This document shows, in pieces, positions 41,497 through 43,739 of a DNA stretch of 64,000 nt. The position numbers were made by a program, and so were the translations under genes. Each line of letters starts with the position of its first letter. The first letter of the stretch is position 1. Source of the DNA: a bacterium (GTDB taxonomy: Bacteria > UBA8248). The DNA lies in contig OY843592.1 of assembly GCA_963692865.2 (NCBI GenBank), forward strand, positions 288,001-352,000. Direction: 5' to 3'. Under the pieces are notes generated by a model. It saw only the letters and a program-made list of their open reading frames with translations. It made no database searches and was not told where the DNA came from.

Positions 41497-42678
41497 TCAG
41501 GGTTTCCCGCGTTCGTCGAATCGTTCGAGCAGTTCGCCCAACGCGCCCAGCGGAACTACCTCGCCGTCCCGGCGGGACTGCCGCTCCGGGCCTCCATAGA
41601 CGACGGCTCCGTGAACGATACGCGGCAACGCCCTCGCCACACGGCGAAAGGCGTCGAACCAGTCGGAGGCGACCGTCGCGCCGGACTTGATCTCGATGAC
41701 GCCCACCCCGTCTCCGTTCTCGTAGAGAAGGTCGCACTCCAGCCCCCGGACGTCCCGGAAGAAGGACAGGTTGGAGCGGCGCCCCCGGTTGAAGCGGTGC
41801 TTGAGGGCCTCTGCGACGACGGCGTTCTCGAACAGCGTCCCCCGAAGCGGGTGGGTGCCCAATTGCCCGGCGTGTTCGATGCCGATGAGGTGGCTTGCCA
41901 ACCCGACGTCGTGGAAGTAGAGCTTGGGTGACTTGACCAGACGCTTGCGGACGTTGGCGAAAAACGGCGGCAGCTGGAAAACGATGTAGCTCGCTTCGAG
42001 AATCGTCAGCCAGTGGCGCGCCGTGGTGTGGGAGACGCCGGCGTCCGCGCCCAGGGCCGAGAGGTTGGCGAGTTGTCCCACGCGCCCGGCGCACAGGCGG
42101 ACGAACCGGCGGAAGCCGGAGAGGTTGCGGATCTCGCCGATCCGGCGCACGTCGCGCTCCACGTAGGTTTCGAAATAGTCGCCGAGCGCCTGGCGGGGTT
42201 CGAGCTTCTGGTCGTGAATCCGGGGGTAGAAACCGGAATAGAGAACGTCGTCGACCGCTTCGCTCGCGCCCGTCCGCCGCCTTTCGGCGAGCGAGAACGG
42301 CAGCAGGCGCAACAGCGCCGTGCGCCCGGCGAGCGACTGGCCGATGGCGTCGGAGAGCCGGAACTGCTCGCTGCCCGTCAGCACGAAGAGGCCGTTTCTT
42401 CCCGCCCTGTCGGCCAATACCTGGAGATAGGACAGGAGTTCGGGGACGCGCTGTATCTCGTCCAGGACGGCGCCGTCGCCCAGCCGGGAGAGAAAACCCC
42501 GGGGGTCGGTTTCGGCGAATTCCCGCTGGTCCGGCGCCTCGAGGTTGACGTATTCGAGGTGCGGAAAGGCGGCGCGGCAAAGCGTGGTTTTGCCCGACTG
42601 CCTCGGGCCGGTCACCGTGACGAACGGGTATTGTTCGAATAACGCCGTCAGGCAAGGGGTGATCTCACGCTCGATCAT
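41497..42678 (-). CDS. AAA_14 + DUF4143 ATP-binding protein
   Basis: GPRQSGKT, LDEIQ, LTGS, KSPKLYFHDVG, IEIKS. Confidence 0.88.
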   Translation of the reverse strand: MIEREITPCLTALFEQYPFVTVTGPRQSGKTTLCRAAFPHLEYVNLEAPDQREFAETDPRGFLSRLGDGAVLDEIQRVPELLSYLQVLADRAGRNGLFVLTGSEQFRLSDAIGQSLAGRTALLRLLPFSLAERRRTGASEAVDDVLYSGFYPRIHDQKLEPRQALGDYFETYVERDVRRIGEIRNLSGFRRFVRLCAGRVGQLANLSALGADAGVSHTTARHWLTILEASYIVFQLPPFFANVRKRLVKSPKLYFHDVGLASHLIGIEHAGQLGTHPLRGTLFENAVVAEALKHRFNRGRRSNLSFFRDVRGLECDLLYENGDGVGVIEIKSGATVASDWFDAFRRVARALPRIVHGAVVYGGPERQSRRDGEVVPLGALGELLERFDERGKP

Positions 42679-42816
42679 GGGGACAGGGTAGCGCGAAAAT
42701 GGCATAATTGCAAGTACTACTTTCAATATTGCAACATGCGCGGGCGTAGGCGGACGGCAAACATGCAAGAAAGCCGCGGGAAAGCCGGGCCTCGACACGG
42801 GCCCGCCGGTATGAAT

Positions 42817-42909
42817 TGGCGGAGAGGGAGGGATTCGAACCCTCGAGGCGCCTTGTGGGCGCCTATACGATTTCCAGTCGTACTCCTTCGGCCTCTCGGA
42901 CACCTCTCC
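42817..42909 (-). tRNA. tRNA-Ser (GGA)
   Basis: GGAGAGG...anticodon loop CTGGAAA, long variable arm, GGTTCGAATCC, ends GCCA. Confidence 0.95.
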
Positions 42910-43008
42910 GCGGGAGCGGGGCCGCCGCGTGAAAGCGTAAGGCGGCCATGCGGGGATTTGTATACCACGGACGGCGGGGGACTGTCAGTCCGCCGTCTTC
43001 ATCGCGCC

Positions 43009-43037
43009 TTGACTTTTCGCAGCGCTTCCCGGATGAT
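43009..43037 (+). promoter_or_regulatory. Putative sigma70 promoter
   Basis: TTGACT-17 nt-GATGAT. Confidence 0.5.
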
Positions 43038-43043
43038 GCGGCC

Positions 43044-43213
43044 ACGTCAGAAAGGAGGTGATCCCAATATGAAAACACACTGTAGGGACGAGGTGACCGG
43101 CGTCTAGGGGAGAGAGCCCTCGGGAGATTCCCACGGGTTTATCTTCGCCCAGGCGAATCCCCACCAGGTCACCGAACGATGGGAAACCCCGGTCCGCGAG
43201 GGCCGGGGTTTTT
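43044..43213 (+). ncRNA. Candidate structured small RNA / micro-ORF transcript (MKTHCRDEVTGV, 43069-43107)
   Basis: AAGGAGGTGATCC SD, nested stems, upstream promoter and downstream terminator. Confidence 0.55.
43184..43213 (+). terminator. Intrinsic terminator
   Basis: aaaccccggtcc-GCGA-gggccggggttttt. Confidence 0.8.
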
Positions 43214-43280
43214 CACGTCGCGTCATTTGAAAACTTTCATCTTTCACGTCTTTTGTCTTCAAGCATAAGGAGCGCGTTTC

Positions 43281-43739
43281 ATGTCGCAGACGAACTGGAC
43301 GGTCTATCTATCGGGAGAAGTGCACACCGACTGGCGCGAGCGCATCACCGGGGGCGCGGAAAAAGCGGGGCTTCCGATCACCTTTCTCGCCCCCGTAACG
43401 GACCACGACGCGAGCGACGACTGCGGCGTGTCCATCCTGGGCGATGAGGAAAAGCCGTTCTGGAAGGACCGCAAGGGGGCGGGCGTCAACGCCATCAGGA
43501 CGCGCACGCTCATCGAGAAGGCGGACGTGGTGGTCGTTCGCTTCGGGGAGAAATACAGGCAGTGGAACGCCGCCTTCGACGCGGGCTACGCGGCGGCCCT
43601 GGGAAAGGCCCTCATCACCCTGCACGAGCCGGGTCACACGCACGCCCTCAAGGAGGTGGACGCCGCCGCCATGGCCGTGGCCGAAGAGCCCGAGCAGGTA
43701 GTGCGTATCCTGAACTACGCCGTCAACGGGACGTTGTAG
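43281..43739 (+). CDS. YtoQ family protein (nucleoside deoxyribosyltransferase-like)
   Basis: VYLSGEVHTDWR, RFGEKYRQWNAAFDAGYA. Confidence 0.88.
   Translation: MSQTNWTVYLSGEVHTDWRERITGGAEKAGLPITFLAPVTDHDASDDCGVSILGDEEKPFWKDRKGAGVNAIRTRTLIEKADVVVVRFGEKYRQWNAAFDAGYAAALGKALITLHEPGHTHALKEVDAAAMAVAEEPEQVVRILNYAVNGTL

Follow-up and report, generated by a model that had tools for sequence, protein, structure and literature searches.

The closest described systems are Ms_IGR-5, the rre small mRNAs, and CC2171. Ms_IGR-5 (RF02471) is an actinobacterial small RNA first seen in Mycobacterium smegmatis; the accessible text of the reports on it describes a small RNA, without mention of an ORF or a long Shine-Dalgarno (SD) sequence (bioRxiv 10.1101/2021.12.14.472595; PMC8079986; PMC10454040), and the available portion of one of them presents it as validated, reports that it is NAD-capped, and calls it uncharacterised (bioRxiv 10.1101/2021.12.14.472595). 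The rre small mRNAs comprise rreB of the Bradyrhizobiaceae and rreR of the Rhodobacterales, and the parts of the study at hand state that rreB binds the 30S subunit and is translated weakly, and that its start codon influences how stable the RNA is (Hahn et al., RNA Biol 14:1353; PMC5711450). CC2171 (RF01867) is a Caulobacter small RNA that, according to the accessible text, has been validated by Northern analysis in Methylorubrum (bioRxiv 10.1101/2022.01.24.477521). A literature search covering sources other than subscription journals found no paper that assigns a function to these families or links them to one another.

The element compared here with these RNAs lies in a 64,000-nt stretch of bacterial DNA (the window, from whose first letter all coordinates are counted), in which positions 43044-43213 (+) form a self-contained unit made up of a promoter-like site, an SD, an ORF, a folded body, and a terminator. 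The promoter-like site (TTGACT as -35, 17 nt, GATGAT as -10; 43009-43037, +) was located by sequence scan and is one of two such sites in the interval 42600-43500, against a shuffle mean of 0.1; its -35 TTGAC and the position of its -10 are preserved in 29 of 30 aligned relatives, the remaining one (L029) being truncated by a contig end. Among these relatives, conserved sequence sets in with [C/T]ACGTCAG, 7 nt 3' of the -10. The predicted transcript of about 170 nt (43044-43213, +) would accordingly start at A43044 and finish in the U-run, both ends being deduced, and the covariance model described below (R1) covers 43043-43216 in its match to the organism's own genome. The extended SD AGAAAGGAGGUGAUCC (equivalent to AGAAAGGAGGTGATCC; 43049-43064, +) is complementary over 16 nt to the 3' end of the 16S gene in the same genome (GGATCACCTCCTTTCT), the mature rRNA 3' end being assumed, and thus contains the shorter match that had first been noted (AAGGAGGTGATCC; 43052-43064, +). 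The 14-mer AAAGGAGGTGATCC within this complementarity has exactly two copies in the genome (4.15 Mb), one in the element and one at the end of the 16S gene. The GGAGG core is separated by 10 nt from the ATG (43069) of a 12-codon ORF encoding MKTHCRDEVTGV (43069-43107, +), which ends in a TAG stop at 43105-43107 and which contains a second SD-like box, GAGGUGACC (43090-43100, +), recognised by alignment and duplex search. Lastly, a terminator hairpin (43184-43211) with a 12-bp stem and a GCGA loop runs into a U-run (43184-43213 in all, +) and is conserved across phyla; a simple terminator scan of the region returned 0 sites because the U-run lies partly within the stem, which reflects a limit of the rule rather than absence. 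The promoter-like site divergent from a tRNA-Ser gene, the SD complementary to the 16S 3' end, the 12-residue ORF, and the GCGA-loop terminator had all been put forward in the original prediction, and each is borne out by these comparisons.

The element is a real, conserved, single-copy gene. DNA-level matches were obtained in all 22 genomes of the genus and in 32 of the 36 other genomes of the family, and a covariance model built from 29 sequences of the window's family only (R1, from alignment A1) matched 38 of 42 family genomes and, at E <= 0.01, 44 of the 51 genomes of the phylum, which holds a single class; one of the 44, G040, reaches just 21 bits. Every matching genome carries one strong R1 copy, with additional matches scoring at most 33 bits. 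In viral contigs the motif pattern introduced below gave 0 matches, and phage carriage was thus not seen.

Relatives outside the phylum were sought with both Rfam models and a motif pattern. At gathering scores, an Rfam scan of the whole window recovered tRNA only and no family was reached by the element, in keeping with the original statement that it matches no recognised family; the accompanying suggestion of novelty fares less well, in that the element is the sole RF02471 hit at E <= 1 in its own genome, albeit sub-threshold (16.7 bits against a gathering score of 45; E = 0.11 for the region and 0.25 genome-wide), relatives of the element pass that threshold, and the accessible account of rre already describes RNAs of this kind (PMC5711450). 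Under relaxed thresholds Ms_IGR-5 and CC2171 both aligned along their full length; CC2171 scored 24.2 bits (gathering score, 75), and a genome-wide search with its model gave no match at E <= 0.001. Further weak hits (AS-pc01, anti-hemB, miRNAs, DsrA, etc.) rest on the terminator hairpin and were treated as chance. The Ms_IGR-5 model also produced sub-threshold hits in the control genomes of Caulobacter vibrioides and Thermus thermophilus, which hints at a wider group that would take in CC2171 and a Thermus locus as well.

The motif pattern, consisting of the extended SD, TGTA, and GAGGTGRC as found in the element and a sister family, was scanned against one genome per species and returned at least 116 loci, or at least 112 once L078, L108, L145, and L167 are set aside as apparently ordinary coding regions matched by chance; by our own rough arithmetic, chance would yield about 14. 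Since the pattern fixes the SD, TGTA, and GAGGTGRC, these positions, together with the Cys codon, are conserved by construction. The loci carry the labels of about ten phyla, among them Planctomycetota, Acidobacteriota, Actinomycetota (Actinomadura, Saccharothrix, and Acidimicrobiia), Binatia, Nitrospinota, Eisenbacteria, Sumerlaeota, Armatimonadota, Tectomicrobia, Spirochaetales, and others. The Ms_IGR-5 gathering score is passed by 7 of 20 diverse pattern loci, five of which are labelled Actinomycetota (Actinomadura, Saccharothrix, Spirillospora, Natronosporangium, and a MAG). Conversely, R1 finds full-length matches in 74 of 100 loci from other phyla, including the Rfam-positive ones (L079, 41 bits; L113, 43.9; L142, 38.5; L148, 32.6; L128, 29.5), with scores that derive in part from the selecting pattern.

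The RNA is predicted to fold strongly, the 173-nt sequence having a minimum free energy of -77.4 kcal/mol (z = -4.2) that none of 200 shuffles equalled. RNAalifold applied to the phylum alignment predicts helix P1 between CGUC (43045-43048, +) and GACG (43087-43090, +), which would enclose the SD and the greater part of the ORF, start codon included; helix P3 between GGUGACCGG (43092-43100, +) and the anti-SD-like strand CCAGGUCACC (43164-43173, +), the latter found by both alignment and duplex search and resembling GGAUCACC of 16S rRNA; helix P4 between the stop-codon region (43102-43108, +) and 43148-43154 (alignment columns 62-119 to 68-113); and the terminator stem. In the sister family, P1 reads CGCG/CGCG instead of CGUC/GACG, and across phyla double-sided changes are present at 4 of its 4 pairs (helix 1). 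The core of P3, in which GGTGACC (43092-43098) pairs with GGTCACC (43167-43173) as originally envisaged, is preserved through a compensatory A-U to G-C change in six sequences of the phylum, and 6 of the 8 P3 pairs show changes on both sides across phyla. Double changes likewise occur in 4 of 4 pairs of P4 (helix 9), which is also part of the Rfam consensus of Ms_IGR-5, and at 13 of 13 pairs of the terminator (helices 12-13). Over 79 rows from many phyla aligned to the covariance model, 93.2% of cells pair, as opposed to 68.6% for shuffled controls and 33-56% for slid partners, and double changes affect 33 of 41 pairs, values that carry a bias towards the R1 structure to which this alignment (A3) was fitted. 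An independent duplex search showed that in most lineages the second SD box has ..CAG.YCACC as its partner, the variants being CCGAG/CUCGG, CUGAG/CUCAG, CUGGG/CCCAG, and CUGGC/GCCAG. As judged from these alignments, P1 and the GAGGUG/GGUCACC helix P3 are conserved, each with compensatory changes.

The remaining parts of the folded body are less uniform. The stretch CGAAUCCCC (43155-43163, +) is conserved and predicted to be unpaired, with a GAAUCC core common to Ms_IGR-5. The inner domain (GAGAGCCC ... GGGUUUAUCUU; 43112-43145, +) is variable, and support there is limited to a CCC/GGG helix and its flanks; of the nested stems first proposed for this region, gggga/tcccc and ttcgc/gcgaa are possible in the window without compensatory change, and ggga/tccc was discarded as not conserved. 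P4 competes with these inner stems, and the covariation sits in P4. A candidate pseudoknot, GGGAGAUUC/GAAUCCCC, has 80% of its cells paired and zero double changes.

Given that GGUCACC could also pair with the true SD (SD1), the original prediction raised mutually exclusive folds, from which follows a two-state switch in which this strand alternates between the ORF box (SD2) and SD1 and thereby gates ribosome access. Both duplexes are feasible here, at -15.8 kcal/mol for the ORF box and -11.2 kcal/mol for SD1, so that the second fold can form as claimed. The compensatory changes within the window's phylum preserve the SD2 pairing only, however, and since both boxes are SD-like, any anti-SD-like strand would pair with both; in the seven sequences with an altered mimic (L015-L017, L021-L023, and L030), the energy of the SD1:mimic duplex drops to -7.5 or -8.3. 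The switch is most plausible in an Acidimicrobiia-like lineage (L076, L102, L103, L123, L153, L156, and L177), where the mimic (e.g., ACUCGGACCACCG) complements the true SD over about 10 nt and also complements the second box with one bulge, the two duplexes being nearly equal in energy (-17.9 to -20.8 for SD1, -19.4 to -21.5 for the second box). As an account of the element under study, we consider such a switch unlikely.

The preferred reading, a small mRNA that is itself translated, draws on the behaviour of the tiny ORF. Each of the 27 unique family sequences preserves the frame, as do 125 of the 129 unique pattern-bearing sequences across phyla, the criterion being a canonical start 3-16 nt past GGAGG together with a stop, in the same frame, 12-18 nt past the G of GAGGUG. 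In the sister family and in Planctomycetota, the start is UUG or GUG and follows GGAGG by 7 nt. Across phyla the ORF spans 11-17 codons, mostly 12-14, with whole-codon differences within lineages, and ATG, GTG, and TTG starts as well as TAG, TGA, and TAA stops are in use among the 129 sequences. Of the 125 ORFs, 100 translate the GAGGUG box as E-V and 24, in which it lies one base out of frame, as R-G-G; 21 of these 24 are from Planctomycetota. In 21 of 22 Planctomycetota sequences, a +1 shift ahead of GAGGUG goes together with a stop at +14 rather than +15, which restores the frame. The reading of one box in two frames, with paired shifts, argues that the box is conserved as RNA and that the open frame is maintained for its own sake. 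Four Acidimicrobiia-like loci (L112, L115, L143, and L164) possess the boxes and have no in-frame ATG, GTG, or TTG at the usual distance, and three of them (L115, L143, and L164) retain the in-frame stop; these loci may use a non-canonical start or may be untranslated.

These observations bear directly on whether it is the 12-residue peptide (consensus x4-C-x2-3-E-V-[AT]-x2) that acts as the effector, with the fold tuning its synthesis, as in a micropeptide gene. The maintained frame, the recurrence of C...EV[AT] within the frame-0 lineages, and synonymous changes in the sister family (e.g., AGU/AGC and GAG/GAA) would fit such a gene. On the other hand, EV is simply the reading of a box conserved as RNA, from which the same nucleotides give R-G-G in the 24 ORFs noted above; the N-terminal residues are free to vary; and the T/A change in the peptide follows the compensatory change in P3. 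The Cys codon is imposed by the search pattern, for which reason no conservation of Cys is claimed, and an in-frame Cys is absent from L156. Moreover, the accessible account of the rre system reports that synthetic RreB and RreR peptides are unstructured and that their overproduction caused no phenotype (PMC5711450). By these alignments the peptide is not conserved across phyla, and a micropeptide effector is, in our estimation, improbable.

At the opposite extreme, the ORF might be incidental and the RNA might act by base pairing without being translated, either as a sponge or decoy that presents a 16S-tail complement to free 30S subunits or as a trans-acting small RNA. The 16-nt complement, the strong and conserved fold, and the description of rreB, in the portions available, as mainly associated with 30S and only weakly translated (PMC5711450) are in line with this possibility. 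Against it, the identities of the start and stop codons vary while frame and position hold across phyla, the paired shifts of Planctomycetota included, and pure base pairing is therefore insufficient as an explanation; according to the accessible text of Hahn et al., overexpression had no effect on growth and ribosomes were judged far more abundant than the RNA (PMC5711450). We consequently give a purely non-translated role little credence.

The genes that flank the element follow lineage. A divergent tRNA gene lies beside it in 35 of 35 examined loci of the window's family (family loci L001-L071), namely tRNA-Ser(GGA) in 29, as in the window (42817-42909, -), and tRNA-Cys(GCA) in six; the former is found in most genera and the latter is confined to two, and the sister family has no tRNA nearby. 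Adjacency to a tRNA was rejected as a general rule, as it holds for nine of the at least 116 pattern loci, all of which are labelled Nitrospinota or are near-identical to family loci. The accessible text on Bradyrhizobium indicates that rreB also adjoins a tRNA gene (PMC5711450). The adjacency may reflect growth-rate control common to both genes, or it may be due to chance. On the far side of the tRNA in the window lies a gene with AAA ATPase and DUF4143 domains (PF13173 and PF13635; 41497-42651, -), and the numerous long overlapping ORFs at about 38-42 kb look like the usual high-GC artefacts. Downstream, ytoQ (PF11071 by family match; 43281-43739, +) is outside the element. In other genera the next genes encode URO-D, LexA, an amidase, a glyoxalase, an HTH-cupin protein, and others, some on the opposite strand, and no neighbour gene common to the phyla was found, neighbour clusters being lineage-specific.

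That the element is a leader or attenuator of ytoQ, which the original prediction listed among its options, is scarcely credible: ytoQ shares the element's orientation, starts 67 nt after the terminator end, follows the element in 20 of 22 own-genus loci with the motif, and is entered by one contig from an RNA library, but it follows the element in none of 18 loci from other genera, where different genes (some on the opposite strand) lie downstream, the same element occurs in other phyla beside unrelated neighbours, and it carries its own conserved terminator, so that the absence of the linkage outside the genus argues that the element is not a ytoQ attenuator.

A distinct arrangement was observed in five loci labelled Acidobacteriota (L085, L089, L119, L126, and L162), in which the ORF downstream on the same strand is one that we take, by eye, to encode ribosomal protein L31 (rpmE). 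No obvious terminator was seen between the element and this ORF, and in these five loci the element may perhaps be the leader of a ribosomal protein gene.

RNA libraries provide a weak hint of expression. Eleven runs were listed, five of them recorded as RNA, and four RNA runs from three studies were examined. Each of the four yielded one short contig (184, 186, 298, and 177 nt), starting at 43056 or 43066 and ending at 43233, 43225, 43349, and 43238, respectively. These contigs differ from the window by 3-26 positions and therefore derive from relatives; they reach 12-35 nt beyond the terminator, with one entering ytoQ, and are uninformative on transcript ends or levels. No contig covered 42920-43039 in the four runs, which is not to be read as absence of transcription.

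Taken together, we consider it probable that the locus is a stand-alone gene of about 170 nt for a small mRNA with an extended SD, a divergent relative of Ms_IGR-5 with a build like that of rre and CC2171, which docks ribosomes and is itself translated. What persists of the original proposal is hence a small RNA gene that stands by itself, with a 5' end suited to ribosome docking and a tiny ORF that is maintained, and what falls away, given 0 of 18 loci in other genera, is the attenuator of ytoQ. Under the small-mRNA reading, the 5' portion of the long SD, being single-stranded, would dock a 30S subunit, and the ribosome would then translate the tiny frame, opening P1, P3, and P4 on the way. 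With the stop codon in the A site, the P-site codon would follow the second SD at a distance of 8 nt (7 nt in Planctomycetota), a spacing like that of initiation, and the anti-SD of the terminating ribosome could re-pair with the second SD, displacing the RNA's own GGUCACC mimic; the spacing is the sole ground for this proposed hand-over between the two boxes at termination. Translation would in this manner control the fold of the RNA and probably its decay, as has been reported for rreB. By analogy with the rreB precedent, the combination of a very long SD with a 10-nt gap between GGAGG and AUG may perhaps make translation poor. The act of translation, rather than the peptide, seems to be what matters, and the RNA may sense or hold ribosomes.

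A bolder extension is that Ms_IGR-5, rre/CC2171, and the element constitute one ancient family of mini-mRNAs spread over many phyla, in which each RNA would hold a full-length 5' SD together with a second SD box that an internal copy of the 16S tail keeps locked, with the hand-over of the anti-SD from SD1 to SD2 serving as a translation-gated device; we regard this as doubtful, though worth entertaining. If it were true, the RNA would report or buffer free ribosome capacity, or park a ribosome, and would carry no peptide message. Separate reports exist from Caulobacter, rhizobia, and mycobacteria of small RNAs that match the 16S tail over its full length, and the present locus links a Nitrospinota-labelled lineage to an actinobacterial family, along with look-alikes that carry the labels of about ten phyla. 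The comparison also yields three rules, namely that the frame is kept and the peptide is not, that a second SD box is accompanied by an anti-SD mimic, and that the stop lies at a fixed distance from the box; if these rules hold, they would describe a widespread ribosome-linked control element.

With regard to Ms_IGR-5, its consensus and the element share GAAAGGAGGUG.UCC, UGUAGG.AC, GAGGUG.C, UAG, and GAAU.CC..CAG.UCACC, and the order of blocks is the same in both: a short 5' strand, GAAAGGAGGUG.UCC, a start codon, UGUAGGAC, GAGGUG.C, a UAG within a helix, GAAU.CC, CAG.UCACC, and a terminal hairpin. Both thus combine a stop-codon helix with a CAG.UCACC strand, and the Ms_IGR-5-like members from actinomycetes contain an ORF of 12-13 codons encoding MV.CRTREV.VR, whereas the element differs from Ms_IGR-5 in its inner domain, its terminator, and its phylum. 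CC2171 agrees with the element in its 5' GAAAGGAGGUGAUCC, its GC-rich terminator, and the pairing of the ORF region with the segment just before the terminator; its long-range helix is CAUUGUC/GACAAUG, in place of the GAGGUG box of the element. The element is a divergent relative of Ms_IGR-5, and it resembles both CC2171 and the rre small mRNAs.

The likeness to the rre RNAs is one of build. As set out in the accessible text of Hahn et al., these are transcripts of about 165 nt with their own promoter and terminator, to which the element is similar by prediction, and they carry a 16-17-nt complement of the 16S 3' end ahead of an ORF of 14-18 codons, compared with 16 nt and 12 codons in the element (PMC5711450). 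A complement of at least 16 nt to the organism's own 16S 3' end, upstream of a small ORF, is thus common to both; in addition, the long SD lies partly in a hairpin and the genomic context is not conserved in either case (PMC5711450). The differences are equally specific: the rre complement enters the first base of the GUG start, whereas in the element the 4-nt spacer CAAU intervenes and is followed by AUG; unlike the element, rre has no second SD-like box or anti-SD mimic in the portions of the description available; and the rre peptides are unrelated to that of the element, with rre having been reported, in the same text, from Alphaproteobacteria only (PMC5711450). What the present comparison adds to these systems is the link between Ms_IGR-5 and rre, the spread over phyla, the helix between SD2 and the anti-SD mimic, and the evidence for translation from frame compensation.
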